This document shows positions 1,791 through 61,275 of a stretch of DNA of 64,000 nucleotides, one piece after another. A program made the translations under genes and the position numbers. How positions within the stretch are numbered: the stretch's first letter is position 1; each line of letters begins with the position of its first letter. Under the pieces are notes generated by a model. The model saw nothing but the letters and a program-made list of their open reading frames with translations. It was not told the DNA's origin and did no database searches. The DNA lies in the NCBI GenBank assembly GCA_003971905.1, contig RSEE01000003.1, positions 372,001-436,000 of the forward strand, given 5' to 3'. This DNA is from Moniliella sp. 'wahieum'. Taxonomy: Eukaryota.

Positions 1791-2163
1791 GCTGAGCCTG
1801 GTAACAGACCACGTCTCAAGCACGTTGAGCGTGGAGAAAGCGCAGCGAGAGGGGGAGGTACAGTGACAACGGCAACAACAATGGCAACCGCGACGGCAAC
1901 GGCGCCCGGAGTTGTGGTTGTGACGCCGAAAATCTTGGGGGCGTGTCACTTTTTGAAGCCCTTCTTCCATCAATAACTCCATGGCTACTGCCATCCCAGC
2001 CGGCCGCGCCCTCGGAGTAGCAGCCCACGTGTCCAACATTTCATTTCAAATGAGTTGCACCGATCGGCCGATTCAGCCCATCTGATCCTCAAGCTTCAAG
2101 AAGCTTTATTATTATCGACCAACAGCTTCATCCGGTTGCTCGATCTCTAGGTTGTGTGCATTC

Positions 2164-2247
2164 CATTGACAGAGCTTAAGGCTGGGACAGGGGAACGCTA
2201 CGTCTAAACCGAACCGTTCATCTTGCGGGGGTTGTTTGGAAGCGCCA
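2164..2247 (-). mobile_element. 3'-terminal fragment (copy A) of the RLE element family
   Basis: Near-identical to 57777-57860 (CATTGACAGAGCTTAAGGCTGGGACAGGGGAACGCTACGTCTAAACCGAACCGTTCATCTTGCGGGG). Confidence 0.8.
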
Positions 2248-2727
2248 TCGATCTCTTTAAAAGGTCGTATGCAAAGCCCTGGCAGAACAAAACCAGTCAC
2301 GGTACAACAGCAGCAAGCAGCTTCAAGGAGGAAAATGAGGCAAATGAGTGGCCGTTCAAGGTGAACGCTGAATCGAACCAGCACCGACCGAACTCTGCAA
2401 TACTCACACAGGAGGGCACCAGTCGCACAACGATATGTAAAACGCTGTGTATAAAAAGCCCATTGCCCACCCGCCACGGGGAGGATCTGGTGGGGTGTGC
2501 CGATGACATTGGCAATAGGTTCCCTCCACAGCGCAACATTGTAGTAGATGGGGTGGGGGAAGACCAGATGGGACGGAAATGGGAAGAGCAGAGAAAAGCG
2601 GATGCAGAGCAATGGGCAGAGAAGGGCATGACATGAAAGGGGTTGTTGCAAGGCAAGGGAAGAAACACCCCCTCCAAGCAGAAGAGGGTAGGAGAGGGGA
2701 GCTAGTAGGGCAGGGAAGGCAAGACTC

Positions 2728-5535
2728 TTACCCTTCGCTTCGCGCCGGGGCCGAAACAGGACCTGCTTCATCCCCAATATGAAGCGTGGCTACTTCCTCC
2801 CGGGCGCTGCGGGAACTCTCGAGAGCTTGGTTAAAGAACTGCCGAGCCTTGTGCGCTTGGGCGATCTGGTGTTCTGCAGCCGCTACCTGCGACGCCTTTT
2901 CACTGATCGCAGCGCGGAACGTCTCTTGCAAGTCCCAGCTGGCGAGACGCATCACCTTACGCACCTCGCGAGAAATACGCTCGGTGCATGGCCGTAAAGC
3001 CTGCATCCTCCACCTCGGCTGAACGAGGGCCCAGAGCAACAACCTCAGCGCTCGATGGCGATCTCGCTGCAGCAGCCGCCAACAAGGCCCGTCCCACGTT
3101 GCGCGGAATCGAGTTAGGCAATCAAAGATCACATATGTCACGGGCCAGCCAAAGCCAGGGCAAAGACGGACCAATAGCATTACGCACGCTGCGGTTGCCG
3201 ATTACTTCTGCAGTCACGCAGCCCCTCAATCACTGCAGTAGACCCGAATGCCTTGCTCCCCACCAGCGTCAACGCGCCAAGGCCAAGGGTAAAGCTGCCG
3301 ACAAGATGGTTCTCCAGTTCTGTCAGCCAGCCTGTTGTCGGGCCGTGATGGGCGTCGATCGGCTTGATTGATTTTTGACTCAGACCATTGAGGGGGGACA
3401 GCAAGCCTGACACGAGGAATGGCACATCCAGCAGATCTGTAGCGGGTGAAATGAGTGCAGTTTTGGGCAGGCCGAGCCAGGCCAAGTGGTTAGCCATGCT
3501 CGTCCGTGACTCGCGGCGCGCATGCGAACGCTTGGACGAAAACATGGCATCAGGCAGAAACACTCGATTCGAGTGGCCCACGCCAGCTGGCAGATGAGCC
3601 TCACCCAGATGCTTGACCAGGGTCACGGCTTCGCTGGTAATCTGGCGAGATTGGTGCTCCGCCTCCCGCACAGCTGCTTCCAATGAGCCAACCATCGCCT
3701 GCCTTACCTCCTCTGCGTAGCGCCACGCCTCGAGCAAACCAGGATAAGCTGGTAACAATACAGCTGGGTGAGCGCTGTGCCCTGCTCGCACGCACGCTAG
3801 GGCACCGGAAAGCTGATCTGCGATCACCGTCTGCGCGGAAGATACCGTTTTGTCCTCTGCTCATCCAATTTGACTGTCAATTGGTCCGCTCGCCGACGAC
3901 AATCTTGCAGAGCTTGGCCAGAGCGAGAGCGGAGGTAGCTGCCGCTTCTTCATCCTGAGCCAACGAAGAGTTGGTCTGAGCCAAGAGGATCACATCGGCC
4001 AAGAGTCGTAGCACATACACCTGTGCAGGAAGCAGTTTGGATTTGGACCGCTTGAGAAGCACAAATTTGCGCAATGACTGTTCCAGACGTGTAAACGCTA
4101 CTTGCCGAGCGCTCGCCTTGCCAGGAAAGATGACAGTCGCGTCAGCCAGGTCAGCATCCCTGGTTGGAAACACATCTTCCGAGTCTACAAAGTGCACCAA
4201 TTCTTCGGCGTCGCTGTAAGTACGTGGACTAAGTTGCTTAATCTGTTCCAGCACAAGACGCTTGCACTTGTCCTTATTCTTGATCTGGTCAAACTTGTTG
4301 ACGACGACGAAGATGTACGCTTTCTCGTTGGACGCATTCCACAAAAATTCCTTGGCCGAGAGGGTGTAAAGTTTCCGCCGAGACGACGAAAACAATGATG
4401 TCGATCTCATCCTGACGGGCAAAGAGAGCTGTAGTCTTGAGCGAATCACGGTTCAGACCAGGAGCGTCGATGAGAGAAATGTCCACTACCCCATTGCGCA
4501 GGAGACTTTCTTGCGTCCCGCGTTGATCAGTGCAGTAGCACTTGAGCAATGGTAATGTCTGGCTCTCTTCCAGCAAGGACATAAGCTCCTCAGCCTGCTC
4601 CAGTGAATAGCGCACGTAGCTGTCATCGTCCTCTGGGCGATAAATCTTGCCTGGTCGCGGCATATGAATCTCCTCCTTGCCCGCGTTGAATTCGAGAGCG
4701 TCCAGCACTTCGCAAAATGCAGTGGTGCACGGCTGCTGATCGGTCGGCATGATTTCGCGACGCAGTAGACTGTTTACGAACGTGCTTTTTCCCGCATTCA
4801 AATCGCCCGTGATTAGCACCTTGGACTGACGGTCGCTGATCCGCAAATGCAACGCTTCCAAATGTTGAACGGTCTGGGCCATCTTTCCATCTAAGAGTTG
4901 GGCCACGGACGACTTTTCCAGCGACTGCAACACCGACTCGCGCACTCGCGGCACATTGAAGCCGGTCGAAAGGGTCGAGCCGGCCCAACTTGCAGATCAA
5001 GGCGAAGGATGCTCAGCCCGTCCTGTTCCTTGGTGGGAAACAAGTCAAGTGTGGCCGAAGAAGCAGAAGCACGGGGACGCATCACAATATTTTCCGTTCC
5101 TGGGAGCCTAGAATGTGTCGGGCCAAACTCAGGTTGGGTAGTCCCAGCCGTGTCCAATGAAGTCGACCGCATCGGCGTGACAATAACAGAGGGCGATGGT
5201 GCATTCATCTCAGGGTACTGTAGAATCCGGCCATTGTTAAAGAGTTGGAGGTTGTTGACTATCTCGCGCGTTTTCGTAACCCATCGAGCAGACTGGGATT
5301 CATAGTGAGAGGACAAGGTTAGTGATCTCGATGGACTAAGGACTAGGGCCAAACTCCCCGGGGGAGCGACACACCGTTCGCGATTAAATCCATACTGGGC
5401 GTCAAACGGAGTGCTGTCAGCAGCGTCCGACTCGCAAGGCGAGTCGGAGCTGAGCTGGACGCTGGCAAGCTCCGCCAACGAACCCGACGAGCGAGCCAGA
5501 CTAGTGAGGGTTGGGGGTGCGTCCTGCCGCGCCAT
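2728..5535 (-). CDS. FZO1: Mitofusin, dynamin-like GTPase
   Basis: SKVLITGDLNAGKSTFVNSLL, PTDQQPCTTAFCEV, DISLIDAPGLNRDSLKTTALFARQDEID, VVNKFD, KRSKSKLLPA, C-terminal TM segments and coiled coil; split by frameshifts. Confidence 0.93.
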
Positions 5536-6467
5536 GCTGCGCTGCGCACCTTCGGGTGACGATAATGCGGACACAAAGAAGGCGGGGATGGTGTGGTGTG
5601 CCAACAGCAGGGGGGGGGGGAGCTGCACGCGCGGGCGTCGTCTGGGGGATGGGTGGAGGCAGGCCAGGCGTGTGGGCGCAGGGGGGAGCTTGGCGCCGGC
5701 GGGGTGGCGAGGCGGACTTGCTGACTGTCGGGAGCGCTGGGGGCGCAGTGAGCTTGACGTGTGACGCTGCTATAGGCGAAACGCTACCCAGTACCAACTA
5801 GAAAGCGTCTATGCGCTGGTTGGTGTGGATGTGATGCATGTGATGTGCGCACGGCCCTGCGCCTTGCAGCCACTAGCAACAAGCAACGTACAACAGTGCT
5901 GGCCCTGTGCAGGGCCGCAGCGTGGGGCGCATCAGCGAGATCAGGTCACATGACCCATTCCAATTTCATTCCAACCTCCAACCCTGCTGGTGGATTGCGT
6001 AATAGCGGCGCAAGCGTCGGGCAGCCATGTACCAGCATCGTGGATGGAAACCTCCAAATTTGGTGGCTGTACTGTAATAGCCACTGCCGAAGCAACCTCA
6101 GCAGTGCCTCGCCACGAAGGTTGAGCAGGCCATGGTGCTTGAAACAACGAGCGCATGGCTCCTCCTCGTTGGTACACGTTAGGTGCACCGTCTCTTCGCT
6201 CCTTCGATGCGAAATCATCGCAGGAAAACAATGACTTTTTGAGGGACATATGCATAGTAGTATGAGGGCCCGGGCAAAGGGAACCAGAGGATACATTGGG
6301 TCCAGACGTAGCCGGGGTCGTATCATACAAGCAGCGCGCCAGCGACGAGGAAGGAGAGGAAGGAGGCGATGACCGAATGCAGGAGAAGAAAATGAGAGCA
6401 TCCACGAGTATGCAGTGGGGGAAGGGGGAGGGGGGCAGCGACTGGCAAAGAGCACCTGGCTCCTGAA

Positions 6468-7269
6468 TCAGAAAATTTGGCACTGTCGTTTCCGGCGTCG
6501 AGGTTGGGGCACTGCAGGCCCAGCGCGCAGAAGTTGATATAGCTGTTGTTTGTCTGTCGAAGGCGTAGCCACATTCCCTTTGGGACTGAAGGCTGCTGAA
6601 TCAGTGGCAACAGGCTCGCCGTAACCCATAGCATGAACCAAGGCCGTGTCGAACACCTCGCGTACTCCACTGTTGAGACGTGCACTGCACTCGACGTAAG
6701 CGGCAGCTCCAATGTCAACGCAACCTGTCTCCCTTGGGAAGGACTGACAGGGGTGGTTCCCTGAGCTTTGAGCATTGCTAGAGCATGTGGGTCCGTCCGC
6801 AGATCTGTCTTGAGACCGACCAGAATGATTGGCACGTGCTCAAGGAAGTGATTGATCTCCGGGTACCACTGTTGCAAAGTCGTCAGTCGTGGGGTCGGAA
6901 AAGAGATGATGCATGAGAAAGTTGAGAGCAAAAAGACGTACCTGTCTTGAACATTCATCAAACTTGTGGGAAAGTCAACGGCAAAGCAGATGAGGATCAC
7001 GTTCGACTCTGGATACGACAGGGGCCGAAGCCGGTCGACTCCTCTTGCCCGGCCGTGTCCCAGAGCGCAAGCTCAACAGGGTGACCTTGAAGCGACCTGA
7101 GCCAGAGTAATTGTCGAAGATGGTGGGCGTGTAGTCCTCGGGGAAACGGTTTCAGAGTAGACGATCAACAAGCTCGTTTTGCCGCACCGCCATCGCCAAC
7201 GACGACGAGCTTACGTTTGGGAATAGACTGATCCGGGGGGGCAGGGTCGTTGAGGTATGTTGAGGCCAT
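6468..7269 (-). CDS. Rho-family small GTPase (Rho4-like)
   Basis: RKLVVVGDGG, LALWDTAGQE, RLRPLSYP, ILICFAVD, one intron (about 6873-6941), WYPEINHF, VGLKTDLR, polybasic tail with CAAX (RRRKRQCQIF). Confidence 0.9.
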
Positions 7270-7623: not shown

Positions 7624-7790
7624 TCAATGTTCAATGTTCAATGTTCAATGTTCAATGTTCGTGTTCAATGTTCAATTGAGCCAGAGCGAGAGCCGTGTGA
7701 CATGTGATGCTCCACAACCAAAAGGAGTTGTCATTCTTATTTGCTCTCTCTCCTCCTCTCAGGCCTCAGGCCCTCAGGGCCTCAGGCCAC
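7624..7790. repeat. Heptamer arrays (TCAATGT)n and (TCAGGCC)n
   Basis: TCA at 7624, 7631, 7638, 7645, 7652; TCAGGCC-like units at 7759-7788. Confidence 0.85.
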
Positions 7791-8699
7791 AATATCTTCA
7801 ATTGAACATTGAACAACTTTTCATCTTCGAAAACGAAGCGGGCAGGCGGTGAAAGACCCGCACGTTCACGGAATCCATTGCAGCACACAAAATCCATTCG
7901 AACTCATCGTTCTGAGGGACCATCAATCAAACCACAGACGATGAAGAGAGAGTGGGTAGAGAACATCGATGAAACTAGTGGGGTCTTGTTCACCGTTCCA
8001 TGCACCATGTCCCTCCCTTGTGCCGCCGTTCCACTGACCCCTTTTTCCCATCGTCAACGCTGTCCACCGTTCCATAATCCACAGAGGCCTCCACTCCGGT
8101 CATATTCACCGTGGCAGAGTACACCGTTCTGTAACCAGTAACAGGGAAGCATGGCTCGCGTTAGAAACCCAGAGAGTGACATAGAGGGGACCGGGGTGGA
8201 CGACTGTCCCCTGTCTCTTTTGGCCCCTTCCCCGCCTGTGGGTGTTCCTTGGTGGCTGCACCCTTCAGCGGCTGTCCTTTGATCCGGCTGGGCAATCGGA
8301 GCCACTGTTCCGTCGTCGCCGCCTTTGGCCACAGGGAAATCAACCACCATTGATCGGAAGCCGCCCACATCGCTGACACGGTTCCGATCTGTTCCGGGCG
8401 GCTATCGTCGCTACCGGTGAATCGTTCCACCCTCCTGTTGATTCTCCGTCCATGAAGCGTCCACTTGGCGAAGCGAGCCGAAGGCGTAGGGAAAAGAACA
8501 CGTGTGTGGCAGAGTCTGGTGGAAAGCAACAAGAGAACACGGTCAACATTCTCTAATCCAAAACCCATATAATAAGGGGGGGATCTAAATGACGGATCTG
8601 CCTTGTGTGATGTTTTGACTGCCGACACGGCCTTGGAGGAAACCTAGGAGGACATCTATGAGACTGAGACATATCCTCTACTGATCACACACACAGAGG

Positions 8700-9100: not shown

Positions 9101-9832
9101 GCCTAAGTACGGGACCACGGGTCCCAACACAAGAGTGCAGGAATATTCCCTAGTCTCTGTAGCTCATATACAATTCTATACACCATCAACTGCCGGCTCT
9201 CTTGTCTTCTACAAGGGGGGTAAAATTACAAGCGCTGACCAAATAAAGGGTTGGGACGGTGGCGAGAATGTGTGGGACTGGAAGACAGAGAGTAGCTACT
9301 AGTACTAGCTATATATACTAGTGAGAGGCTTGAAGCTTGAAGAGATATCACATACATGATCATCACATGCATGTACGGGTGTATACAGCCAGGCTAGCGT
9401 ATCTGACAGGCTTAGTAGCTGTGGTGTATGCCACGCACAGTAAAATGTTAGAAATCCACCCCGTATGTGTGTGTGAAAACCCCGCGAATCACGTTAATCA
9501 CGCAGTACAGCAATGGGGCGGTTCTTTTGTCGTCCTCTACTCCCGCTGTGGGGCCTACGGTACAATGCCGCATGTGTTGACCTTGGTCATTTATGGCCAG
9601 GTCACTTCCGAGTGGCATCATGTGTGATCGCGTGTGATGTTTTCTGACGTGGCGTTTCCGACTCCATGATGACTTGGATTCGCCACCGTAGCAATTTGAT
9701 CTCCATCGACCACCATTCCATTTGCTGCTCTTTGAGCTCTTCCTGGGCGTTAATAGAGTTACAATCTGAAGCTTTTCCTTCTGAGTAACTTTTCTCCTCC
9801 ATTTTATCTCTGCGCCCGTTTACCACTCTCCA

Positions 9833-9892: not shown

Positions 9893-10306
9893 TACAACTC
9901 AAGCCCACCCGAACTACCCTATACTCTACCTTTTTCCCTCCCCAATGTCCGCCCCCTGGTATAACCACCTCCTTCCCACCCTCCCTGCGAACGATGAAGA
10001 GGCCCAGAATGTTGTCAATAGAGCCTCGGCCATCCTCAACAATCTCCAAATCATATCGCACTTATCCCTCTCAACAGAGCGATGCGCAGACCCACATCGG
10101 TGGGAGTATCGTCCCCTGCACCTGCTCTTAGCTCCGCAAATGGCATGGGTTGGAATACGTTGTTTCCTCGGGCATTCTGGCACAGATCCACCCTGTTTAG
10201 CCCCTCTGCTGTGGAACAAAAAATTAACATGTGGTGTATACAAACTTTGACCCGGGACAAGGGCAGTGTGCCCCACACGCAGATGAGAAGAAACGTCGTA
10301 TAGAAT

Positions 10307-10397
10307 TGAATATTGATCGCTGAGCGCTGATCGCTGATGCGGATGATGCATGATGCATGATGCATGATGCATGATGCATGATGCATGATGGCGCTGA
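10307..10397. repeat. TGA-N4 heptamer lattice ending in (TGATGCA)n
   Basis: TGA at 10307, 10314, 10321, 10328, 10335, then every 7 bp from 10344 to 10386. Confidence 0.9.
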
Positions 10398-10712: not shown

Positions 10713-12321
10713 ATGCGTTGGACGCTCTTTGCTTGCTCCCCTTCCTTTTGCCGGGAATGCGCTGGCATCTCATCCTCATCCCCGTGGAAGGCGATCGTCC
10801 GGCTTCCAAACCCACCCTTCCCCTTGGTCAGGTCAGTCCGCCTTGTCCGATTGCGGGGTGGAAGCATCGCTGCTACTCGACCAGAGTAGCCCCAACTTTA
10901 CCGCTTTGACCAGCAAATTTGCCAAAACACCAACTACACGCTACTGCCAATACTGTCGCCCTGCCCAACACAGCGCAAGACGTGTCGTCGCTGGTTCAGT
11001 GCATTGGTCAAAAGGGAATTCCATTTGCCATCCTCTCTGGGGGGCATAAGATGGACCTACCCAATGCCAAGGCGCCCCCCGGCCTGTGATCAACATGGAG
11101 AAGTTTTCTGGCATTCAGTACAATGCCTCGAGTCAGACGGTCACGTGTGGTGCTGGATTGCGCTGGGTGATGTCTACAATTACATGGAACAGGTATGCAC
11201 ATCTACTCTTCACTTTCCCTCACTGTGCTGGGCTCTTTTAATGGACAGGAAACTGACGAGACGGATTCGGGGGAGGTGCAGGCAACAAATGGGACGCGTA
11301 TGCCGGTGGGAGGACGTGCGTCGCACGTGGGCGTGTCAGGGTGCTTGCTCATGGGCTGTGTGATAGCTGGTCGAGCAGTGCCCACGGGTTTGGTTCGCAA
11401 AACATCGTTTCTATGGAGGTGGTATTGGCCAACGGGACGGCTACCACGGCCTCGGTGACGCAAAACACGGATCTGTTCAATGCGCTCCGTGGCTCGGCGG
11501 GTCAACTGGGTGTGGTCACGTCATTTGAGTTGCTCACCACCCTGTTTCGCCGGTCCCAATATGGTGGGTCGTGGGCTTATGCGGCAGAAAATACGACAGC
11601 GTTGGTTCAAAGCGGCCCAACACTTGCTTCAGAGTTTCCCAGTGGAGACTCAATGTGGTCATCACCTTTTTTGGGAACGGGCCAGGTGGGTGTGCAAGAG
11701 TGGTATAATGGCACCGAAGCCGAAGTCAACCAGACTGGTGTCTTTGCCGACTTTGACCGCCTTGCCCCATTCCACTCTGCCTGTTCTAAAGGCGCCCAAC
11801 GAAACAAACTATGCAGGGGTGAACGAACTGGACGACCCAGGTTTGTGTCGGGCCGAAGCATGATGGACGCCGTTCCGATTAATGCTTTGGATCCGGATAT
11901 GTTTGTGCGGACCCGAAGAGGCTGATGACCTGACGACAGCTCACCCCGAATTCAACTACACGTCCATCTACATGGAGCCGTGAAGCGGGTGTGGTGGCAA
12001 ACGTGCCGGTCCCAATGCAGCCTGGCCGCCCGACGAGGGACATGGCTGCCATCATCGGGATCAACCGTTGCCTGGACCGATGCCAAGTACGATGCCGCGG
12101 GAGCAGAGGCGACAACGAAGTTGCGCAGCAGCTGACACAAGATGCAAGCATCTGGGTTGCTTAACGATACGCAGACGGGCAATCCGTTGGCTACTTTACC
12201 AACTACGCCAAGTTTGACCAGGACATTACAACAGCATGTCTACACCTCCAAGCTTGACTGGCTCGAGGGCGTCAAGGCCGAGTATGATCCCGACTGTGTC
12301 TTCTACAAGCGCCGGCATTAG
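10713..12321 (+). CDS. FAD-linked oxidoreductase (berberine-bridge/FAD_binding_4 family), possibly secreted
   Basis: WGDVY, VGGRASHVGVSG, SSAHGFGSQNIVSMEVVLANG, DLFNALRGSAGQLGVVTSFEL, C-terminal VKAEYDPDCVF; hydrophobic N-terminus MRWTLFAC; introns and frameshifts. Confidence 0.8.
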
Positions 12322-13635
12322 GGGCCAACTGCTACGCCTAAGGCCGGTTGAACGTGGGCGGCGCTGCTGCTAGGTGCACACTATTATATCTTTTTGGTAT
12401 GGAAGAGCATATACTGTTGTCCTTTTGTCTGTCGGTCTCTTTATTGCGATGGTTGGGGATGGTGTGCAGCCAGTTGAAGTTGCTTGCGGGGTGGAAGGAG
12501 GGGAGGAGGTCATCATCATGGAGAATGGAATCATCTACCGCAATATCATGATGGTCACAAGTATAGGAGCTCAATCATGTCACGTGATATGTACCGTACT
12601 AATACCCCGCGGTGCTGTAATTATGTGGAGGGGAGATTTTGCGGGGCAGAAAGCTTGAGCCTCAAGACCCAACGAGATAAGGCAGGCGGGGGGGTGGACA
12701 GTGATGCAAACTTCCGCCTGAGCCAGCGGGAGGAGAGAAGAAGATGCGAGGAAAGAGCGGTGGGAGCGCCGCAAGCCAAGCGGTTTGAATATTCCGATGT
12801 CATGAGATAAAGCAGTTATTGAACGTTGTTGATGATTGATGCAATGTGATGACGTTGAGTTGAACGTTTTGAACAGCTGCCAGTCCAATAGGGGGCGGGT
12901 GGGGGCTCGCGAGCCCCCTGTCGACATGTCATGTCTGCACATTTGATGTCACATATCACAGAGCGAGAGCAGCGGCCGGCAAAGGGCCCGGCTGAGCTTC
13001 AGGCTCCAGTTTAATGCCCAGCTCAAAGGCCGATGCCGTACCTCGTGGTGGCAGCGCTAAGGCTCAGCCGAGCAGTGCAGGCAGCGCAGCTGCTGGGTGC
13101 CCGCTGGTGCAGCGGGATGGGATGCGTGCAATCAGCAATCAGGAAACGGTGAGCGGTGGGTGACGGCTGCATGGTGTGGGAGCGGCGCCTGGGCACACTG
13201 TGGGCAGGTGCGCGGGGCTAGGAACATGCGTGGGTGGCGCGAGGCTGGGCAGCTGCTGCGCACCATCCTGCTCTCGCCCGCTGGTCCACTTTCGCCACTG
13301 CCACACAGCCCCCGCGCCGTCCGGGGGTCTGGGCGGCGGTGGTCGTTGGGCTTGCCTGTGTGGGACGCAGTGCCCCGTGCCCCCGCGGTCGGCTGCGGCA
13401 TGGCGGACCTGCAGGGCTCGCGTCCATCACGCATCAGCTGCGGCGGCTGAGGCTCAGCGCTCCGCCTGAGCTCCGCGGCTCAGCCTCAGCGTCTGAGCGC
13501 TGCCGTGGGCATCGCCACGAATGACGCCTCGCTCCGTCTCCCTCTACCACCCCCACTTCCGCCTGCTCGCCCCGCACGCACCGCACACGCACACGCGTCA
13601 CTCGTCCCACGCCCGCTCCCTCTCTTCACGCGGCC

Positions 13636-17584: not shown

Positions 17585-17683
17585 AGGAGTAGGTCGGACT
17601 TGAACCAACGACTTCAAGATGATATCGAACCGCCTAAACGACCTCGTTGCAATCTCACACGCTAACCGCTGCGTCACTACTCC
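17585..17683 (-). tRNA. tRNA-Cys(GCA) with 26-nt intron (17621-17646)
   Basis: Acceptor stem GGAGTAG/CTACTCC, discriminator T, D arm ACGC/GCGT, anticodon GCA at 17648-17650, intron after position 37, T arm GTTGG-TTCAAGT-CCGAC, downstream T-run Pol III terminator. Confidence 0.93.
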
Positions 17684-21527: not shown

Positions 21528-22275
21528 GGTTAGGGGGGGGGGGGGGGAGGTGGGGCAGGAGAAGGGCCGCCAAGGGCAGGTAAGCAAGGCGGTATTATCC
21601 CTCACAAGTCAGGCCCGTGCGGGGCAGTATAGCTGCCGCCCCTGGCCCACGGATTTAGTGTGGCTCCCAGGCTCCTGGCATTAGCCCAATACATCCCCCG
21701 TACTAGGACTGTGCTTTTTCAGCGCCATTTCTTTTCCCATGCTCCAGGCCTCTTGCGCGGCACTCCCCGCCGTCTCTGACACGCAATCGGGCCCATGACC
21801 ATGTTCGACGTTCAATGCTGCTCATCCGCCCACGCATGCACATATCGTGTGCGCCGTCCCGTCATATTCACCACGCTCAGTGGGCACAGCATTGCCACAA
21901 ACGTAGGAAATGGTATTAGCAGTGCTACGAGCAAACAGACAACACGTGGAGCTGGCATGTGCAATTCGGTCCTTACAGCGCAGGTGCACTGGCATATAGG
22001 TTTCCTCGGATCCGTCCGCCTTGAAGCTGTCAAGTTCGATAGGGGAAATCGGAATCCAGGCAATATTTTGGTGTCCGGGCCTCCATAAGAGGTCAATGGA
22101 CGGGAATGGCCGACAGCCAAGTTCGCCTTGTCAGCCACAGTGAAAATACTGCGCGCTTTGAGCAACACAGGGCATGAGAGGGGGGAATGAGAACAAGACA
22201 AGAAGGGTCAAAGCACAGGTTGTCTAACCTGGCTTGACTCATCACAAACTCTGCAACAGGACAAAAACACGTGGT

Positions 22276-23039: not shown

Positions 23040-23060
23040 CAGGGTTCGTAAATAACCCTA
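23040..23060. promoter_or_regulatory. Inverted AGGGTT/AACCCT pair in the RPL25/RPL17 bidirectional promoter
   Basis: CAGGGTT-cgtaaat-AACCCTA; the same heptamer occurs near the other RP genes in the window. Confidence 0.5.
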
Positions 23061-47814: not shown

Positions 47815-48223
47815 TTAGTTGGAAACCGAGCTGAGCAGGTCCGAATCACCAGCGTCCGTGACGGCGAGCACGCTATAAAGTTCCAAACACACACCACGTC
47901 AGATGACCGGTTTCATTACCCCAGGTAAAAGAGAGAGACGTACCCAACACGGAAGAGCTTGCCGGAAGCCGTGCCAAGGGCAACGTTCGAGCCCTGGTAG
48001 TGGTGCACGAGCGTCTTGGACAGCATGGCGTAGTACTCAAGCTCCGACTTGCGCGAGGAGGGGTGTTGGCCGAGATAAGGACAAGCTTGGCCTTGCCATT
48101 CCGGAGGGTCTTGAGCGTGCTCGAGTAGCCGAGCTGAACTTTGCCCGACTTCATGACAAGCTGAAGCTTGCCATTGATGTTCTCCTGTGTGGAGGTCTTC
48201 TTCTTGTTGCTTACAGGCGCCAT
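47815..48223 (-). CDS. RPL30: 60S ribosomal protein L30 (eL30); 5'-UTR intron at 48230-48354
   Basis: [53 protein letters not shown]-like segment, [13 protein letters not shown]. Confidence 0.95.
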
Positions 48224-48865
48224 CGTGTCCTGTTGCTCATATGGTCAGTACCTCTGCTTCAAGCGCGATGGGATGGCATCCTGAAATGCACCCCTCCAGG
48301 AAGCCTCATTCCTGGGGGGGAGGTCTGTCGCTCTTTCTGGAGCATGGCACTCACTCTTGTCAGTGAGTCGTCGGTAAAGACCAGCGGGTTGGACGTCGGG
48401 ACGGAGGGATGCTTCTGGCAATGTGGGCGATAGGGTTTGGATCTGGTCTGAGTTCTACACTGGCCTACTGCCTCCTTGCCGCAGTCGCGGAGACAGCCCC
48501 CCAGTATGTCTGTCCATCTGCCTACCTGATGTGGTGAGTAACAGGGTTACATCACGTGATGCGGGCCAACCTATCGACACACTTGTTGGCTGCTCTTGGT
48601 ACAACCGCGTTCCCAACAACCCATCGAGTTTGGCTTCCAAGGACAGGTAAGCACCATTCCCACATTGTGTTCCCACGAACTGCTCGTCCGCATGCCAAGG
48701 CATATTGGCGCCTGGCATCTCCAAGTATTCACGCGGCTTGGTCCCCGCTCCCATTCGACTGATTACGGTCCATAGCCGGGTGGGACTGCGGCGGGCCCGC
48801 AAATACCGAAAGGGGGAGAGCAGTCATGAGTAATGGCCTGACACAAGGTCCCAAATACAGATCAA

Positions 48866-49131
48866 ATGACGACGCGCGGTACTACTTCATTTGGCCTTCG
48901 CCACATTAAGGCGCACACGTTGTGCCGCCGCTGCGGAAAGCGCTCGTTCCACAAACAGCATAAGGAGTGTGCCTCCTGCGGCTACCCCTCGGCCAAAACC
49001 CGTTCGTACCAATGGGGCAGAAAGCTATCCGGAGGCGCACTACCGGCACGGGCCGGATGCGCTACCTCAAGACGGTGCCCCGCAAGGCTAAGAACGGTTT
49101 CCGTTCTGGCGCGCCTAAGGTGTCTGCTTAG
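48866..49131 (+). CDS. RPL37: 60S ribosomal protein L37 (eL37); leader intron at about 48533-48860
   Basis: [51 protein letters not shown]. Confidence 0.96.
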
Positions 49132-49909
49132 GTGTCGCATTTTCGTCTTCTGATTGCTTCCTTCGTTTACGGTGCGCGCTTGATGGGTGTTTTACGTCGT
49201 CGGTCCCATCATCCTGTATGTTTGTTTACAGTGAACCTCAGATCCTCAGCGCTAATCCCGCTGGTGCTGGCTTGGTTTTCGGCACCGCTACTACCACCCC
49301 ACACTTCGTCAGCCTGCCATCTCTATATTCGCGCCGTACTGGCAACCATGCATTGTAAGCTCTACCGGGCGTCGCGTTCATGAACCACATTTACTGTGCT
49401 TGTTCGTTATGAAGGGGACTTCGCAGGGCTGCTGGAAGGTGGTCGCTAAAATCTGTGCGATCCCCTTCATATATCGGAGGAGAGGCTTGGAATGAGAAGA
49501 TTTTTGCGAATACCACGAGCTAAGGCCTGGCTGAGTACCCTACTGTGTGTTCAGACACGAGCGTCTCGTGTACCACTTTTCGGAAGCATTCCGCACTCCT
49601 CATGGTGTGGTCCACCTCCATCTCTCATTCTCCTCTTCTTCCCCCCCAACCGGCTCATATCATACAGCGTTGTGTGTACCCCCAATGCTTGGGGATTGGG
49701 TCCCGCATTGCCTCGTGGAGCGCCCCAGGTCCAGAGCATGATGTCCTCCAGACTTCTGTCTCCAACTGTTCTGGTGTGCTGGTAGCTACAGGCGCTTGAG
49801 ACTTGAAGCTGAGACTGGATACTGGAGCGCTTCAGGTGTTCGTATGTGTCGTGGCCAATTTCGCTGCCAACGAGATGCAACGTGTATAAATTCAACTACG
49901 ACGGAAAGA

Positions 49910-52735: not shown

Positions 52736-53076
52736 TGCGGTTGATGGCGGCGGGAACAGGGTGTCTGGGGGTTGAAAAGGGATGTGGGATGAGACCAAGG
52801 GATGAGGGCGGGGGGGCGCAGGCTGAGCGCTCGTGGGCGCTGATCTGCGGTTGGGATGCCCAGGAGGGTAGGGAGAAGGCGGCAGGCGGTGGTTGGCCCC
52901 AGCAGCGGTCTGGATCTGACGCTTGCGCTTGCTGAATGCGAGACTTGGGGCAGCAGAAGACGATGCAGGCGCATGGGCCACTGGCCCTCGGCCGTCTGGT
53001 GTGTGCGGGGTGCCAGTGGCCACTGGAACCGGCAGCGGCCTAGTGCCGGGGCGGAGCATGCGCTCATCGTCGCCGA

Positions 53077-53170
53077 TCACGCATCACGCATCACGCGCCA
53101 CGCGCAACATGGAAGCATGCAGTGCGCAGCCCACGCCCCGTCGCAGCATGCATGAGCATGATGCATGATG
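53077..53170. repeat. (TCACGCA)n and TGATGCA/TGAGCA heptamer tracts
   Basis: ATCACGCATCACGCATCACGCG and GCATGAGCATGATGCATGATG in the divergent promoter. Confidence 0.75.
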
Positions 53171-53669
53171 GCTCCATTCTAGTCACCGAATACCTGGCCA
53201 GGGACGCCGGACGCCTCCTCGCAACGCCGTCCCATCCACATCACTTCCGCGGCCCCCGCGTCTCTAACCCATGCTGCACTTCAACTTTCAAAACACCAGC
53301 GCGGGAAGGAGGACAATGCATAGGGTTATGGCTACGGCGCAATAATATACAGTGGGCCTGTACCCCGCTGGAATAATATTCGTATACTGCCCCCGTGCGC
53401 CTGCTCATGAGGGCGTTGCCGCTACCGAGAAGCTCGTCGCTGCCGCTCCCGACTGTCCTGACCCCACCCATCGCCAAAGTAAGTCTGATGACAGGATATT
53501 GCGCGCCTGAGTGGCGGTCCCAGTAGCCCGTGCTGGCGCGTGCGATCCACATCCACTGCCCCACCTAGCCGTGTTGCTGCGAAACCGCGTGGGCGCCAGC
53601 ACTACGCCCGCTCTGGCCTACCTGATGTGGAGAGAGGACTAACTTTAATTGGCCCCTGTCTGTGTGCAG

Positions 53670-54173
53670 ATGTCTAACCCCCAAGCCGTCTCCTGCTTCG
53701 GCAAGAAGAAGACCGCCACGGCGGTGGCGTACGCCAAGGCCGGAAAGGGGCTCCTTCGTGTCAACGGCCAGCCGATCCACCTCATGAAGCCCGAGGTGCT
53801 CCGCTGGAAGCTCTACGAGCCCGTGCTCATCGTTGGTGAGGACAAGTTTGCGTACGTGACCCCTCCCCTCAACAGCAGGACGACTTTCTTTTACTATAAC
53901 AAGTTGCTAACCTTGCTCCTTCAGTACGGTTGACATCCGTGTCCGCGTCTCGGGTGGTGGCCACACCTCGCAAGTGTACGCTATCCGCCAAGCGATTGCC
54001 AAGGCGCTCGTGGCCTACTACGCCAAGTTCTACGACGCTTCCTCGGCCCTTGAGCTGCGCCAGCTCTTCGTCAGCTACGACCGCACCCTCCTCATTGCCG
54101 ACCCCGCCGCATGGAGCCCAAGAAGTTCGGCGGCAAGGGTGCCCGCGCTCGCCGCCAGAAGTCGTACCGTTAA
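53670..54173 (+). CDS. RPS16: 40S ribosomal protein S16 (uS9); leader intron 53479-53669
   Basis: [71 protein letters not shown]. Confidence 0.97.
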
Positions 54174-55123
54174 GCAGTTATGTCCAAAGAGGGAGCAGGG
54201 ATTTGCCTCGCATTATGCAATCTCATCCGAATCACTGCTTCCCGAGGCTTTTGCTGCTCGTACCGTTGTGCATTGGTTTTTGGTGGACCTCTTGAAGTTC
54301 GCATCGTATGATCTTCTCTCATCATGTGTCCTTGTCCAGGGCACACCTCTGGCACTCTTACCAATCTCATCAAAAATTGATCTTCGCGGCCAGTATGTCC
54401 CCAACCATGTTTGTTTTGTCGGTATGCTGTTGCTAGACCTATTCGTACCTGTAGAACTCTCGAAGCACCGATTAGTGTCTGATCTTGCCCTGCTTGTCAG
54501 GGCTCGCAACACAGAACCGACCATAGCTGACTGACCCCAGCCTATGAAGGAGAAGCTAGAGATCCTTGCTGATGCGCTCAAAGTTTAGACCCGCCTACAT
54601 GTGCTTCAGCTCAAAAACACAGGATGCACATGCTGAGGTGATACCTGGCCTGCTGTATGATATAGGAATACCCAACGTCCAATCGTAGCATCGAGTGCCC
54701 ATATTCGCACCCACGTTCCCAACTGTGAACCCATGCCGTGTGCGAGTCGGCCAATGTTTTTAGAACCACTTAGCATCCTCTCTATATCGCGATCTAGCGA
54801 AGAGGACCGAGACATCTAACATCAATTGTGGAGGGGCTCAGGGCCTGATAGAAGAAGAGAACAGCAACATTGGTGCTGTATATTTGACGAAACGAAACGG
54901 TACGAGAGCATAGTGTTGGAAGCGGAAGAGAAAAAAGTCATGTGAACACTGTCCTTATTACATGTTGGAGCTTACACCCAGGGCCTGGGCCTGGGACCAC
55001 GCCGTATCAACCCGCTCTTGAAGCGCTAGAATCTGCTTGACGGCGTCTTGCGTTTCAAACGGTTGTCGGTGTCCTCAGCAGGAATAGTGTCAAGTGACAA
55101 GAGAAGCTTGGTTAAGAGTTCGT

Positions 55124-57130
55124 TCAACTTGGGTGAGACAAAACAATCTGGTGCAAGTTGAAGTAGCCATCCGTTTTCGCATTGGCTTCGACCAAGTTGA
55201 ACTCCGAGTCAGGGACACCTGGATGCTGAGAGGCAAAAAGGGCGATTGATCTAGCTTCGGGGATTGCAGCCACACTACGCTCCAGCTGCAGAACCTCGGG
55301 ACCTAGTTGTTCCGTGGCAGTATCTTGGGCCATGCTAATTCGCTTTGACACGCCTTCTTTGGTTTGGTCCGACTCGAGCGCTTTGCGAGCAGCGGCAGCC
55401 TTCTGTTGTGCTTCAAATAGAGCAGTGGGCCGGCTGTGGAACTTGGCACGCTGAGCAGGTGGAGGGGGCCGAATTACGGAACTGTGGATATTGTGGTTGT
55501 GCAATAACGGCGCATCATCATGATGGAGTGTGTGGGGAATCAGTCGGTTCAGGGGTTGCGCCGTGGTGTCGCTCTTCAGTCGGAACACTGTTGTGCCTGG
55601 CTCCTTGACCCGGGAAAGCATCATGATTATGCTGCGTCACACCCTGACGGCCTGTGGAGGGTGGGCTCCGACGTTGTCGTCCCCTGAACAGCAGGGGTCT
55701 TGATGTGATGAGTGGCACTTTGGGTACCAACCATTTTGCTCGTCGCTACCCCGGCACCCTTTTGCATCTTGTTTGTAAGCACTTGCCGGTGCTGAGCGGT
55801 CCATTTTATACACTTCATCAACACCTTCATAAGTAGACGGGAAGACAGTCATGGAAGCATGCGCGTTGGGCAAAGATACAGCAGCAGCTTGCTGGTCAGA
55901 TTGAACCTCCGCAGAGGCAATGACATGCTTGGAAGGACGTTGTTGCATTTCTGCCTTCGCATGACCCCAGTTTGTGAATGCCTTCTGATCGGCCTTGCTC
56001 GGGGTAGTCGGTTGCTGTTGCACTTGTACCTCATAGGAGGGCGAAAGTTGTGTTGCCTTGCCATTGGCAGAAAGGGGCGGGGGTGGCAGGGATGGCAGGG
56101 GTGGCAGGGGTGGCATGTCTGATGTTGGCAGGGCTGGCAGAAGTCGGGGATGATGGCTGCGCTTCATTCCTCCCAGGAGAAGTGGCAAAGGCATCCGACG
56201 GGACCGTTTGTTGTGACTCGTCCATAACCGGGGCTTGCTCCTGTTGTTCAATGTGGAGAGTGGGCGCCATGGGCTGGGAAGCGTCGGGATGGAGTGCTTC
56301 GCCACTGGATGTAAGTGCACCGCCAGTGATGGCTTGCTCCTGGACTACACTGGAGCTCGGGGTAGATCCGCAGACGGCCGTGGCTACAACAGTTCCTTGA
56401 TTACAGACGTGATAGCTGCCCAACGAAGCATCGTCGTCGACCATGGGTGTATTCCCGCTCCACAGATCAAGGATGGGAAGGTCGTGTAACATGGAGGAAA
56501 CAACATGTTTGATAGTCCCCACCGTTGTTGCTTCCCCATCTGGGGGTGTGACCAGTGGGAGATAGAGATGCCTGCAAGCGTTCAAAAGGGCTGTTAGTTA
56601 TATTGACTTGGTCTTGGTCATTCATGACATCCAAAGTATGGGACATACAGTACAACTTGAATACGGAAGGGGCCAGAGGGTTGTATGGCTGGGGGATTCG
56701 GTTGTTGTTCGCCGGGGGTGGCTGCCATGGTGTCATGCGTAGGCTGTTCCTGGGACGATGGGAAGGCTGCGCGGTGCCCTCCGTAGACTTCTGCTTCTGC
56801 TCTGTCGAGGCAATTACGGTGGTTGTCGTGGGCAGGCTGTTGTTCGCGGGGGTGGCTGCCATGGTGTCATGCGTAGGCTGTTGCTGGGTCGATGAGAAGG
56901 CTTCTGCGGTGCCCTGTGTTGTAGGCTGCGGCTCCGTCGAGGGGGCGGGTACGGTGTTGCTGTCGTGGGTAAGCTGTTGTTCGCACGGGGTGGCTGCCAT
57001 TATGGTGCCATGCATAGGCTGTTGCTGGGTCGATGAGATGGCTACCGCGGTGCCCTCCGTAGGCTTCTGCTCCGTCAGGGAAGCAGTTGCGTGGGTGCCC
57101 GTGCAGGAGAACCCCCTCCACCGTAAACAC
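55124..57130 (-). CDS. Hypothetical low-complexity T/Q/P/A-rich protein (orphan, possibly decayed)
   Basis: Chain of overlapping minus-strand ORFs of similar composition; no recognisable domain. Confidence 0.35.
56700..57075 (-). repeat. Three tandem copies of a roughly 135-bp unit
   Basis: GGTGGCTGCCAT...CATGC(G/A)TAGGCTGTT...GCGGTGCCCT recurs near 56717, 56851 and 56988; encodes HDTMAATP-like repeats. Confidence 0.85.
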
Positions 57131-57765: not shown

Positions 57766-58541
57766 TTGAATTCATATCATTGACAGAGCTTAAGGCTGGG
57801 ACAGGGGGAACGCTACGTCTAAACCGAACCGTTCATCTTGCGGGGTTACTTGGAAGCGCCACCAAGATTAAGGGACCAGGGGGATCGCCAGGATATCAGG
57901 ACCCTCCGGCTCACGCCATCCGGTCCCGTACCCTAGGAAGCGCGTGTGGACACGGAGGAACGTGGTTGACATACGAGCGAGGAACCATTTCCACTGAGAC
58001 TTAGTAGCCAACTCCTTCCAATGCGCAAACAACTTGCCCGCCGTCTTGGTGCCGTAGTATCCTCGCGTCGTCAAAACCAGGGGGAAAAACGGTTCTTGAG
58101 TGCGTCCCTGGTACTTGGCGTTCTTGTCGCATTCTGCTTGTTCAAGCAGCCGAAGCAGTTCCTTCTCCCGGCGTTCCAAAGGCGACGCAGTGCTTCATGC
58201 ACCACCCGCCGGTACGCGCTCTGCGCCTCCTGCGATCCCGTGTCGCGCAGCGTGTGGTCTACCTCCATTCCGGTTCTCCAGTGCTCCGGGCCCCATCACG
58301 CGGTAATAAATTTGGAACGGTTTTTCTTCCCCCGCTGCGTAAAATTGTACATCAGCATGCCACCTGGCACGTTCCAGGCAGCCGCAGCCAGGCCGATGCA
58401 TATGGGTGATAAAATTCGCCCCTCCAGCGTGGAACGGTGGTTACGGTGGACCGGTGGAACGGTGGCTAAGGTGGCGACGCAGCACCAAGCACACCAAGCT
58501 GGGGCGAAGCCCCAGCTGAGGGCCGTAGGCCCGGTGGTCTT
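57766..58541 (-). mobile_element. Copy D: internally deleted, RT-less element encoding an RLE-type endonuclease domain (CRE/Cnl1-like non-LTR derivative)
   Basis: HADVQF...QIYYRV, then AECDKNAKY...FFPLVLTTRG...ARMS, fitting the RLE pattern D...D...KxxKY...FxPLV...G; 5' end shared with copy E. Confidence 0.75.
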
Positions 58542-58995: not shown

Positions 58996-59643
58996 AGACC
59001 ACCGGGCCTCCGGCCTGGTCAGCTATGGCTTCCCCAGCTTGGTGCTGCGTCGCCACCTTAGACACCTTCCACCGTAGCTACCGTAGCCACCGTCCCCCCG
59101 GTCCACCGTTCCACTTGGAACCCTTCCACCTTGGAACCCAAAATAATATCTCGCCGAGACGTGCTGGCTGCGAGCAGTGGGGGTGCATTGAGAGCACCGC
59201 GACGCCTCTGGAGCGCCGGAAGAAGAGAGCTGCTTCGGCTGCTGGAACAAGCAGCATGCGACAAGAACTCCATGTACCAGAGACGCACTCAATAGCCGTT
59301 CCCTCCCTGGTTTTGGACGACGCGAGGATACTACACGGCACCAAGAGACAGCAGGCAAAAAATGCTTGCGCATTGGAAGGATTTGACTACTGACTCTCAA
59401 TGGAAATGGTTTCTCGCTCGGATGTCTACCACGTTCATGCGTGTCCATACGGGCTACCTTGTGTATGGGAACGGATGGATGGTGGGTACCAGAGCGTCCT
59501 TGATCTCCTGGCGATTCCCAACATGGTTCCTTGAACGGGGTTGGCGCTACCAAGCAGCACACGCAAAATGATGAGCGGGGGGGTCGGTTTAGGCGTAGCG
59601 TTTCTCTGTCCCAGCCTTAAGTTCTGTCAATGATATGGATGCA
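58996..59643 (+). mobile_element. Copy E: inverted, more diverged copy of the same element
   Basis: Same 5' end (AGACCACCGGGCC), same RLE peptide (AHWKDLTTDSQWKWFLARMSTT) and same 3' end (TCTGTCAATGATATGGATGCA). Confidence 0.8.
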
Positions 59644-59674
59644 GTATACTGTGAATTGCATGATTGTGTGTATA

Positions 59675-60228
59675 TGTGAGCTACAGAGACTTCGCTGGTA
59701 CGAGCGGTTATCTCCGGACGCTGAGTGCATGAGCCCCGCGTGTCGTAGACATCTCAGCCCAACACGCGTCAGTCCGGTTAGACTAGCGAGAGAGAGCCAG
59801 TCGACACCTTATCCTTGCTGCGGATATCATCGATCATCGATCATCCGCGGCCCCATGGTCGCATGGGCTTATCGGTACGATGCTTTGTGCCCATTGCGTC
59901 CAGTCTTGTCACAACCCTTCCTGCTGCGCCCGACTACGCACAGCGTCAGCGCCTTGGAGAGCAAGGCTCTGCATTAGTCTTTGCCTCTCTGGGAAGTGCC
60001 CGCATTCTGTCTATATCCTGTCATGAGGACTTGAGGCCCGATTCCTTCTGCCGTATATAAGCAGCCATGTCTAAGGCTTGCTAGCTGTGGTTAAGCCTTG
60101 TCGACCATTTTTCTCTACCTTGGTCTTCCCGACTACCAGTTCCTCTCTCGCCCTCCCCCTTCTACCACTCTTAAGCTTACGAATTTACGACTTACGTCGA
60201 GTGCACTGCAAGCCGCGGTTACTCTCAT
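59675..60228 (+). mobile_element. Possible LTR
   Basis: TGTGAG...CTCTCA termini, internal TATATAAG at about 60054 followed by a pyrimidine tract, PBS-like AGTAGCG downstream; no partner LTR in the window. Confidence 0.25.
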
Positions 60229-60837
60229 CAGTAGCGATTGCTCTTCTTTAGGACTCTGTTGTTCCCGCCAGTTACAGCGTACCAAGTGTGGTAACGCTGC
60301 GAGGAACAGAGTAACTTCGGAGCTCCTGGACCCTTCAGCTGATCTAACGACCTACGTACGCTCCTCCTACCTCGGAGGGTCTGGACTGCGGCCTTTGCAC
60401 GTGGCTCAGCCCCCAAACTAGAGGGTCTCTCCCTCGCCTCTACACCCGCTCGGTTCAACCAGGATCTGGAGCAGTACCTAACGTACGAGCACACGATTGA
60501 TCTGTTCAAGGGTTTATACCCTTAAACTACAGGGGGGGTCCCACCTCGGGACCCCCCATGACATTCGCAGAGAATATGTGTTGCTCTCTCCGTCGAGACC
60601 GCGTGTGTGCATATTTTGAACTCGGGAAGGAATGCAACAGAGGGAACCGGGCTTGGGCTACCGGAGCGCCTTCCCCGTGTCGTCGACGAAGGGTAGTTAA
60701 TCAGGTGACAGTATCCTTGCCTTATATCCATTCCTAAGTATTAGAAGGCCATATACTAATCGGGCTTGGCTTGGTTGGGTACTGTATATAAGTAGCATAG
60801 CTAATCGAAAATGCTGGTAACAAGGTTCCGGATAGAT

Positions 60838-61275
60838 ATTGAGGCTTGTGAGGTGTGACATGTGAGGTCGGCCTGAGGCCTGATGAGCCTGGTGCGCAGT
60901 AGATGCCAAATATCAAAGCGTTGATATGTCGACACGTTAGGGCGCGCTTAAGCACTTCCTGAGAGGAATCAGAAGAATCAAAGAAGCAGGTGCGGTGACC
61001 GGTGACCCGTGACCGGGGAGAGACGATGATCGATGGTCAGTGACTGCGTGACCGGTGACGTGTGACATGGACATGTGACATGTCACATGTCACGCGGCGA
61101 CAACGCGCGGCAGCAGGCAAGATTGCTCAGACTGAACCTCTTGAGCTCTGCGATCGTCGAGAATCACGTCACTTTCTCACTTCGGCAATGAATATTGAAT
61201 CGGCTGTCCCATGCCTGCATAATCGAAAGTCTGTCATTCATGTCATGATCGATACGACTATCGATCATCGTCAAA
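60838..61275. repeat. TGA/TCA plus palindrome tracts (CATG, GGCC, CCGG, TCGA) including a perfect 22-bp palindrome
   Basis: GGTGACCGGTGACCCGTGACCGG at about 60994; GACATGTGACATGTCACATGTC at 61070-61091. Confidence 0.85.

Follow-up and report, generated by a model that had tools for sequence, protein, structure and literature searches.

A 64-kb stretch of fungal DNA from contig RSEE01000003.1 was analyzed over its whole length and is referred to here as the window. Its non-coding DNA contains short tandem arrays with a 7-bp unit, in which TCA or TGA (together TSA) is joined to a four-base palindrome (P4); such a symmetric unit is an interrupted palindrome. These heptamers are the dominant short tandem repeat of the window's non-coding DNA, and their occurrence depends on four features: tandem state, self-complementarity, core, and period. 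Our preferred explanation, advanced tentatively, is that they are micro-arrays from a lineage-specific mutational process, in which 7-bp duplication or slippage is promoted by self-complementary units. All window statistics rest on 64 kb of one fungus, while further data come from metagenome contigs.

Excess of 7-bp Duplications

The null model consisted of 200 simulated sequences of the whole window for each Markov order (1, 3, and 5). Exact period-7 duplications of at least 14 bp numbered 39, compared with simulated means of 3.6–4.0 (maximum 12) and a uniform-random expectation of 2.9. TCA or TGA is present in 31 of these 39 arrays (0.7–0.9 expected from the simulations) and 22 have an interrupted-palindrome unit (0.3–0.5 expected). 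Pairs of the type TSA-N4-TSA are also raised in the window (136 vs. 65–73 expected), as are those with a palindromic spacer (55 vs. 4.2–8.5). Tandem Repeats Finder gave about 35 period-7 rows. An earlier note on this DNA had placed TCA/TGA-plus-palindrome units at 21 coordinates, and such units are present at all 21, with a displacement of 1–2 nt at three of them (9331, 28692, and 28799). The excess of heptamer arrays is real and far above chance.

Exact tandem duplications are found at other periods as well, with 46 at period 6 (11.7 expected, partly coding) and 7 at period 8 (0.7 expected), but these two periods lack the bias in unit sequence seen in the heptamers. Symmetric units account for 2/46 duplications at period 6, 22/39 at period 7, 0/7 at period 8, and 0/6 at period 9. 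The arrays agree with slippage-born microsatellites in having a unit of 1–9 nt repeated head to tail, but they fail the microsatellite expectation that unit sequence, beyond composition, matters little.

Chance, base composition, or an assembly or sequencing artifact is a highly improbable source of the arrays. Simulations keeping up to 6-mer composition never came near the observed counts; the arrays are short, diverse, and unlike known platform artifacts; and the same kind of array is found in independently assembled metagenome contigs.

Core, Spacer, and Period

The self-recurrence of TCA/TGA at 7 bp is 3.1 times the expected value, and no similar peak is seen at 4–6 or 8–12 bp. A scan of spacer lengths gave 55 palindromic spacers for TSA + N4 where 8.5 were expected from the pair count, while TSA + N2 gave 19 (15 expected) and TSA + N6 gave 4 (1.5 expected). 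The cores AST, CSG, GSC, CWG, GWC, and AWT with N4 stayed at chance level in the window (0–10 seen vs. 2.3–9.9). A TWA core followed the rule in a weak form (5 vs. 1.4), and TTA was found flanking TCGA, GTAC, CGCG, and ACGT. Because of these examples the core is better written T-N-A, with C or G strongly preferred; the TSA core first described was correct as to the dominance of C/G, but too strict. The scan of cores and spacer lengths limits the effect to a spacer length of 4 and a T-N-A core.

When arrays were selected by a palindromic tetramer in any rotation, the remaining three bases were TCA or TGA in 21 of 25. The center of symmetric units is T-S-A in 21/22 and TTA in 1/22. The 37 separate loci with like cores on both sides of the spacer use ten of the 16 possible palindromes: AGCT at 7, CATG at 6, TGCA and GGCC at 5 each, CCGG, GATC, and CGCG at 3 each, ATAT and TCGA at 2 each, and GCGC at 1. 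The spacer GTAC sits between TCA and TGA, and with it the 11 palindromes counted earlier are recovered.

Neighboring units have like cores on both sides in 47 cases and unlike cores (TCA-P4-TGA type) in 8. A fold-back or template switch, as had been proposed for the origin of the repeats, is unlikely in its simple spacer-centered form, since this predicts the TCA-P4-TGA type.

Tandem State and Self-Complementarity

Single heptamers of the form b'a'TSAab outside periodic stretches are as frequent as expected (128 vs. 120), and the motif as such is therefore not favored. Arms that are only inverted around TSA, X4-TSA-revcomp(X4) with a non-palindromic X, which would give a small hairpin, were seen 11 times with 7.5 expected, and direct, non-inverted arms were mildly raised (19 vs. 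7.5). Palindromic X arms, which are direct and inverted at once, were seen 22 times with 0.5 expected. Since only these are strongly enriched, the favored state is a tandem repeat with a self-pairing unit. In the 31 TSA arrays, both pairs of spacer bases are complementary in 21, one pair in 8, and none in 2, where the shares expected by chance are 6, 38, and 56%.

Every base is found at each spacer position, given its complementary partner. A spacer that is free but covarying is therefore the mark of nucleic-acid pairing and not of base readout by a protein, which bears out the earlier view that neither plain slippage nor a single base-reading factor would predict this grammar. For the same reason we consider it possible but unlikely that the arrays are cis-acting sites under selection, in which a protein, a dimeric family, or a chromatin factor would read symmetric T-S-A at 7-bp spacing in promoters and other spacers. 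A near-invariant T-S-A core beside a variable spacer would suit such sites, and so would the clustering of the arrays and some of their positions, namely 13128–13490 just upstream of open reading frames (ORFs) with a UCH domain (from 13497), 34806–34987 before the M20 peptidase ORF, and 53076–53215 between diverging genes. Single-copy motifs, however, are at chance, the lack of a 14, 21, or 28 bp periodicity once exact arrays are removed counts against long binding arrays, and many intergenic spacers are free of arrays, including all of those at 35–52 kb.

Predicted Folding as Single-Stranded DNA

The region 10300–10395, which holds a TGATGCA array, had a predicted folding energy of −22.9 kcal/mol (z = −3.4; 0/200 shuffles as good), with stem segments of 5–6 bp separated by one unpaired base per strand. 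The predicted fold of 10343–10390 reproduces the hairpin suggested in the earlier note, in which a single C or G stays unpaired every 7 nt. A chain with a flip in orientation (61040–61100) gave −18.7 kcal/mol (z = −3.4), better than all 200 shuffles, and 29222–29290 reached a z of −2.2. In the predicted form of short arrays, palindrome is paired with palindrome and TCA is a three-base loop.

Array Anatomy, Distribution, and a Dispersed Repeat Family

Most arrays have 2.0–2.3 copies (14–16 bp) within a range of 2–7.7, and they vary by imperfect copies, 8-bp variants, and degenerate tracts. The two longest are (TCAATGT) × 7.7 at 7624–7676 and (TGATGCA) × 6.9 at 10343–10390. Chains with a constant TGA/TCA every 7 bp and a changing spacer are found at 10307–10338, 28657–28680, and 61040–61093, and two degenerate heptamer tracts of ~100 bp, in which the conserved part drifts, at 27488–27585 and 28657–28770. 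With exact arrays removed, TSA-TSA distances of 7 bp are still 1.45-fold in excess, while those of 14, 21, or 28 bp are not raised; long phased arrays are not the rule. A few arrays flip from TGA to TCA (27526–27580 and 61040–61093) and thus become long palindromes. Arrays paired in opposite orientation were seen at these two places and at 7624/7801, most arrays being solitary and self-complementary by unit.

The arrays are strongly clustered, with a median nearest-neighbor distance of 76.5 bp where randomly placed arrays gave 659 bp and, over 1000 trials, never less than 128 bp. They lie in gene-poor stretches at 7.6–10.4, 26.9–29.9, 32.5, 53.1, and 59.8–61.1 kb. No array (0/39) overlaps the Pfam-supported ORFs (14,877 bp), and none is found at 35–52 kb, which is dense with ribosomal-protein and other housekeeping genes. 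The earlier statement that the arrays lie outside coding exons thus agrees with the Pfam-supported ORFs. Three single TSA-P4-TSA 10-mers are inside such ORFs (1184, 6907, and 39008).

At 28364–29451, ten array loci in succession have TCA on the + strand, although their spacers are of six kinds. This run could hint at a strand-asymmetric process; an overall runs test on the regional C vs. G strand consistency of the arrays was not significant (P = 0.25).

A dispersed repeat family with a shared terminus has + strand copies at 2159–2231, 24239–24620, 32656–32725, and 57767–58200, and − strand copies at 59190–59643 and 61381–61409. The copies at 57767–58200 and 59190–59643 are facing inverted arms of ~400 bp each, ~1 kb apart, and by their arrangement resemble a non-autonomous element whose terminal inverted repeats are long. 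The copies of this family showed no clear target-site duplication. Its fragments occupy the same gene-poor stretches as the arrays, but the arrays are not part of it: the flanks of its copies lack homology to the arrays, and none of its indels is a T-S-A duplication. The terminus had 0 matches in a scan of metagenome contigs.

There is little likelihood that the clusters descend from a small number of long heptamer satellites, or from arrays that a mobile element carried, and that they are what is left after decay, sharing their grammar by common descent. The drifting ~100-bp tracts, the strong clustering, and the ten TCA-oriented loci in a row would be expected of such remains. At least 11 palindromic spacers at 37 loci across 62 kb would not, nor would array flanks that share no homology, arrays that lie outside the repeat family, and the non-significant runs test, and descent alone does not produce palindromic spacers.

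The arrays could also be footprints of a cutter with a fixed stagger, as transposase target-site duplications or as symmetric overhangs whose central mismatch is repaired to C/G, each visit adding 7 bp. A strict period of 7 bp is what this proposal has in its favor, as slippage should act at 5, 6, 8, and 9 bp too. The two-copy state of most arrays, the C or G center of an otherwise symmetric unit (as in the mismatch-resolved footprints of Tc1/mariner-type elements), and the presence of a TIR/LTR-type repeat family in the same gene-poor regions also agree with it. We nevertheless find this origin improbable. The phase of the duplications with respect to the core is not fixed: each of the seven possible ones was found, and the S-centered 7-mer fits only 8/17 two-copy symmetric arrays. 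Within an array the center is consistently C or consistently G (47 like vs. 8 unlike), where independent events would mix them, and copy number rises to 7.7. The freely covarying spacer is unlike a protein-type target consensus. A search of the 64 kb for 12-bp terminal inverted repeats with 6–9 bp direct repeats found no element with T-S-A duplications; among inverted-repeat inserts flanked by 7 bp there was one candidate, whose flanking sequence is unrelated to T-S-A.

Similar Arrays in Metagenome Contigs

Metagenome contigs were scanned with three units of TSA + RGCY, which gave at least 120 stretches, and 119 loci (591 kb) were analyzed. With the ascertained array masked, the lower-G+C loci listed (148 kb) contain six more symmetric T-N-A arrays (two in L006 and one each in L014, L040, L068, and L070), and the high-G+C loci listed (426 kb) contain one more. 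As T-N-A plus palindrome arrays occur in these contigs, the grammar is not private to the window. Mosaic arrays in L006, L032, and L068 pass stepwise from AAGCTT-type units through asymmetric AAGCCT-type to AGGCCT-type units. No allelic pairs were found among the 119 loci by all-against-all BLAST. The only Pfam matches in the grammar-sharing contigs were to ankyrin repeats, in L068, and to a phage GP88 domain, in L070.

A small protein family is represented on the 12.6-kb stretch L006 by three or more paralogous ORFs (2453–2908, 5400–5852, and 10763–11302), and a shorter motif at 377–1003 is shared with them. T-S-A heptamer arrays lie in a spacer between two ORFs of this family. One family protein has 554 metagenome relatives, only one of which has a BTB domain (PF00651). 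BTB-like gene families might speak for an agaricomycete origin of L006, PF00651 being limited to that one relative. L002 is extremely rich in period-7 repeats over 1–6662, as are L049 and L118; it has 105 exact period-7 duplications in 6.7 kb, whose units are TGGGGCC and TCTGTGG, as well as 50 copies of a 10-bp unit in one array.

Origin of the Arrays

The data show that 7-bp stretches in weakly constrained non-coding DNA have been duplicated in tandem, and that such duplicates are far more frequent for 7-mers made of T-N-A (mostly T-C/G-A) and a four-base palindrome. In the mutational process that we prefer, copies would then be gained, lost, and mutated, with yield or retention climbing sharply for units of this form. 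The direct repeat of such a unit would be inverted at the same time, and neighboring copies on either strand could pair into a 4–5 bp stem with T-S-A as a three-base loop, while longer arrays could pair with one C·C or G·G mismatch per repeat turn. We infer that self-pairing of adjacent copies stabilizes misaligned, out-of-register intermediates in replication or flap processing, whereby the extra copy would be retained. In gene-poor spacers the arrays would accumulate, decay, and re-homogenize.

Several observations argue for this reading. Only the tandem state is biased (single heptamers 128 vs. 120), and the dependence on self-complementarity is graded (21/8/2 of 31 arrays). The arrays have microsatellite-like traits, with variable copy number, no fixed phase, and clustering, and they avoid constrained DNA (0/39 in Pfam-supported ORFs and none at 35–52 kb). 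Long and flipped arrays outfold all 200 shuffles and have their loops on TCA, and the metagenome mosaics step through an asymmetric intermediate.

Other results weigh against it. Arrays of two to three copies, which are the majority, have predicted folding energies between −3.5 and −5.6 kcal/mol, on a par with shuffles (z −0.5 to −1.1), and the (TCAATGT) × 7.7 array, which is not self-complementary, is non-folding (−2.3 kcal/mol, z +0.6). The extra periodicity in two-copy arrays is 0–2 bp only, so there would be little repeat for slippage to act on at the first duplication. Neither the T-N-A core (TSA in 21/25 arrays with a palindromic tetramer) nor the missing effect at periods 5, 6, 8, and 9 is predicted by hairpin energetics, and the mutational model leaves both the core and the exact period of 7 unexplained. 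Among the metagenome matches listed, homogeneous TSA + RGCY arrays below 58% G+C were palindromic in 10 cases and non-palindromic in 22, and those above 58% G+C in 12 and 42. Self-complementarity is therefore no general requirement for heptamer expansion, and TCA/TGA heptamer arrays without the palindrome rule are common in nature. One might speculate that the core was set because T-N-A is the sole three-base loop that reads T-N-purine on both strands; as to the period, a stem of four pairs and a loop of minimal size would add up to 7, which is no more than suggestive.

It is decidedly unlikely, though worth stating, that a dedicated activity of this lineage recognizes T-C/G-A in a self-complementary context and adds or maintains 7-bp units. 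A nuclease, a recombinase, a polymerase, or a chromatin protein that reads structure could be responsible. On this view an undescribed system of sequence-directed genome editing or marking would have produced the arrays, which would not be a passive by-product of replication.

Individual Arrays

Coordinates below are on the + strand. A TCAAGCT unit of ~1.9 copies lies at 2089–2101. The array (TCAATGT) × 7.7 at 7624–7676 has a TCA core and a spacer one pair short of a palindrome (T/G), and does not fold; the reverse complement of its unit is found nearby as (TGAACAT) × 2.1 (7801–7815), with about four copies of (TCAGGCC) containing 1-nt indels between them (7758–7788). Further on are (TGAAGCT) × 2.1 (9328–9342), a mixed chain with TGA each 7 bp and the spacers ATAT, TCGC, GCGC, and TCGC (10307–10338), and (TGATGCA) × 6.9 (10343–10390), the longest perfect array. 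The spacer is non-palindromic in (TCAGCAA) × 2.1 (13128–13142).

The next group begins with (TCAAGCC) × 2.3 (26916–26931), whose spacer is one pair short of a palindrome. The degenerate ~100-bp tract at 27488–27585 is first TAG-phased and then made of GTGAC-NN and finally GTCAC-NN units, with a C/G flip in mid-tract. In its first part, 27488–27523, directly upstream of the GTGAC-NN units, TAG occurs six times at exact 7-bp spacing, a conserved triplet other than TSA. It is followed by (TGAAGCT) × 2.1 (27850–27864), (TGAGCGT) × 2.3 with one G/T pair in the spacer (27915–27930), a TCAAGCT unit of ~1.9 copies (28364–28376), and a single TCA-AGCT-TCA (28526–28535). About 3.6 imperfect copies of (TCAGATC) lie at 28616–28639, and at 28657–28729 a chain TCA-GTAC-TGA-CGCG-TCA-CGCA passes over to (TCATGCA)n, where a single unit, at 28716, is inverted. 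Then come (TCAGGCC) × 2.3 (28753–28768), (TCACGCG) × 2.1 (28796–28810), and blocks of (TCAGGCC) with 8-bp variants and one TGA-oriented stretch (29225–29286). The group ends with (TCACGCG) × 2.9 plus another TCA-CGCG-TCA at 29451 (together 29409–29460), (TGAAGCT) × 2.0 (29698–29711), and (TCATGCA) × 2.3 (29886–29901).

The array (CGTTACG) × 2 (32469–32482) has the same grammar with a TTA core and lies near (TGACATG) × 2.9 (32539–32558). An imperfect array of TGATGCA-type units (×2.7) is found at 34806–34824, (TCAGGGT) × 2 with a non-palindromic spacer at 34974–34987, (TCACGCA) × 3 with a spacer one pair short of a palindrome at 53076–53096, and (TGATGCA) × 3.4 with an indel at 53148–53170. The last arrays are (TCATCGA) × 2.9 (59826–59845), a TGA-GGTG-TGA-CATG-TGA chain with (TGAGGCC) × 2 (60849–60883), (TGACCGG) × 3.4 (60993–61016), a GTGAC-NN chain that flips to GTCAC-NN (61040–61093), and (TCATCGA) × 2 with TCA-CATG-TCA (63819–63848).

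A role as a stop-codon barrier (TGA in three frames) was considered and rejected, as most arrays have two copies and the palindromes would be left unexplained.

Genes and Other Repeats of the Window

The DNA is eukaryotic and fungal, and the host is probably a basidiomycete. Stop-to-stop ORFs have Pfam domains of an ABC transporter, a dynamin-like GTPase, a ubiquitin hydrolase, 2-oxoglutarate dehydrogenase E1, several cytosolic ribosomal proteins, adenylate kinase, an M20 peptidase, an AP-complex mu subunit, Med11, and a WD40 protein. The genes are broken into several ORFs, and introns are therefore present. The E1 fragment shares 77–80% identity with unnamed proteins and 67–68% with named ones from basidiomycetes and ascomycetes. 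For the M20 peptidase, the protein-atlas cluster that lies nearest has mostly basidiomycete members. The G+C content is 50–62% along the window. An Rfam scan of the window gave one tRNA only (17585–17683, − strand), which probably contains an intron, since the match is 99 bp long and the model has 71 positions.

Domains of cytosolic ribosomal proteins (L23, L22, L6, L7Ae/L30e family, L37e, and S9/S16) are found in six or more ORFs inside 32 kb, at 22307–23896, 40322–40966, 47876–49150, and 53911–54531, where the spacers are compact and free of heptamer arrays. At 56703–57062 a 134-bp tandem unit (2.6 copies, 81% matches) is located within long ORFs, present on both strands and without a Pfam match. 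Tandem repeats of 18 and 12 bp (9.3 and 7.4 copies) at 62086–62324 are in frame with an ORF that reaches a Glyco_hydro_cc domain, and they are likely the Ser/Gly-rich linker of a secreted glycosidase. Runs of G are found at 21533–21555 (23 nt, 81% matches) and 63380–63396 (17 nt, perfect).

Comparison With Known Repeat Systems

Surveys of fungal microsatellites usually end at 6-nt units and would therefore miss a class of heptamers. No description of such repeats in fungal nuclear DNA was found in the full-text literature searched, the coverage of which is thin for subscription journals, and the heptamers that the earlier note mentions from intergenic DNA of smut fungi were not found there either. 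The rule is tight enough to be tested, with a fixed T-N-A, an exact period of 7, and any palindromic tetramer. If it reflects self-pairing in replication or repair, the arrays would be a natural many-allele series on how small hairpins drive repeat gain, a question that also arises for the heptamers of bacteria; if a protein reads or writes the units, fungi would have a sequence-directed activity of a new kind. As a practical use, the arrays should serve as highly polymorphic markers.

CNG triplets are hairpin-forming, expandable repeats with one regular mismatch. The heptamers are similar in being a self-complementary repeat with one regular mismatch and a proposed link between hairpin and gain, but CNG arrays have a unit of 3 and tens to thousands of copies, while the window arrays have a unit of 7, 2–8 copies, and a free spacer. 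Tandem repeats in yeast promoters are said to tune expression, reportedly by work of Vinces and colleagues from 2009. These too are short, unstable tandem repeats in fungal intergenic DNA, but mostly AT-rich, of many unit lengths, and without the rule of a core plus a palindrome.

Template-switch mutations at quasi-palindromes and the growth of inverted repeats in yeast promoters are described in two reports (PMC3820800, PMC13100816). The events covered there likewise raise self-complementarity and have a non-coding or promoter location. They extend inverted repeats, however, whereas the product in the window is a direct tandem repeat, with TCA-P4-TGA in the minority (8 vs. 47).

Among bacteria, the Beggiatoaceae have intergenic direct repeats of TAACTGA with a proposed post-transcriptional role (PMC4679880). 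As described there, these are also heptamer direct repeats with TGA, intergenic and at many loci, but they are bacterial and consist of one fixed, non-palindromic unit, unlike the window arrays.

Closest in form are the heptameric repeats of other bacteria, for which Rehm et al. (2015; PMC4692102) give GGGAATC arrays in Xanthomonas, often as convergent pairs, GGGGA(C/T)T in Nostoc, and tandem heptanucleotides in cyanobacteria. They are over-represented, often occur as opposite-oriented pairs able to form stem-loops, and have an unexplained role. The window arrays share the 7-nt unit, intergenic over-representation (39 vs. ~4), a normal level of other unit lengths, hairpin potential, and an unexplained function. 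One or two G-rich units dominate a bacterial genome there, but the window has no few dominant units, with at least 11 palindromic spacers around one T-S-A core. The bacterial hairpin also needs two opposed arrays (PMC4692102), while in the fungal arrays, of eukaryotic host, each unit is itself self-complementary and a single direct array is therefore already its own inverted repeat.

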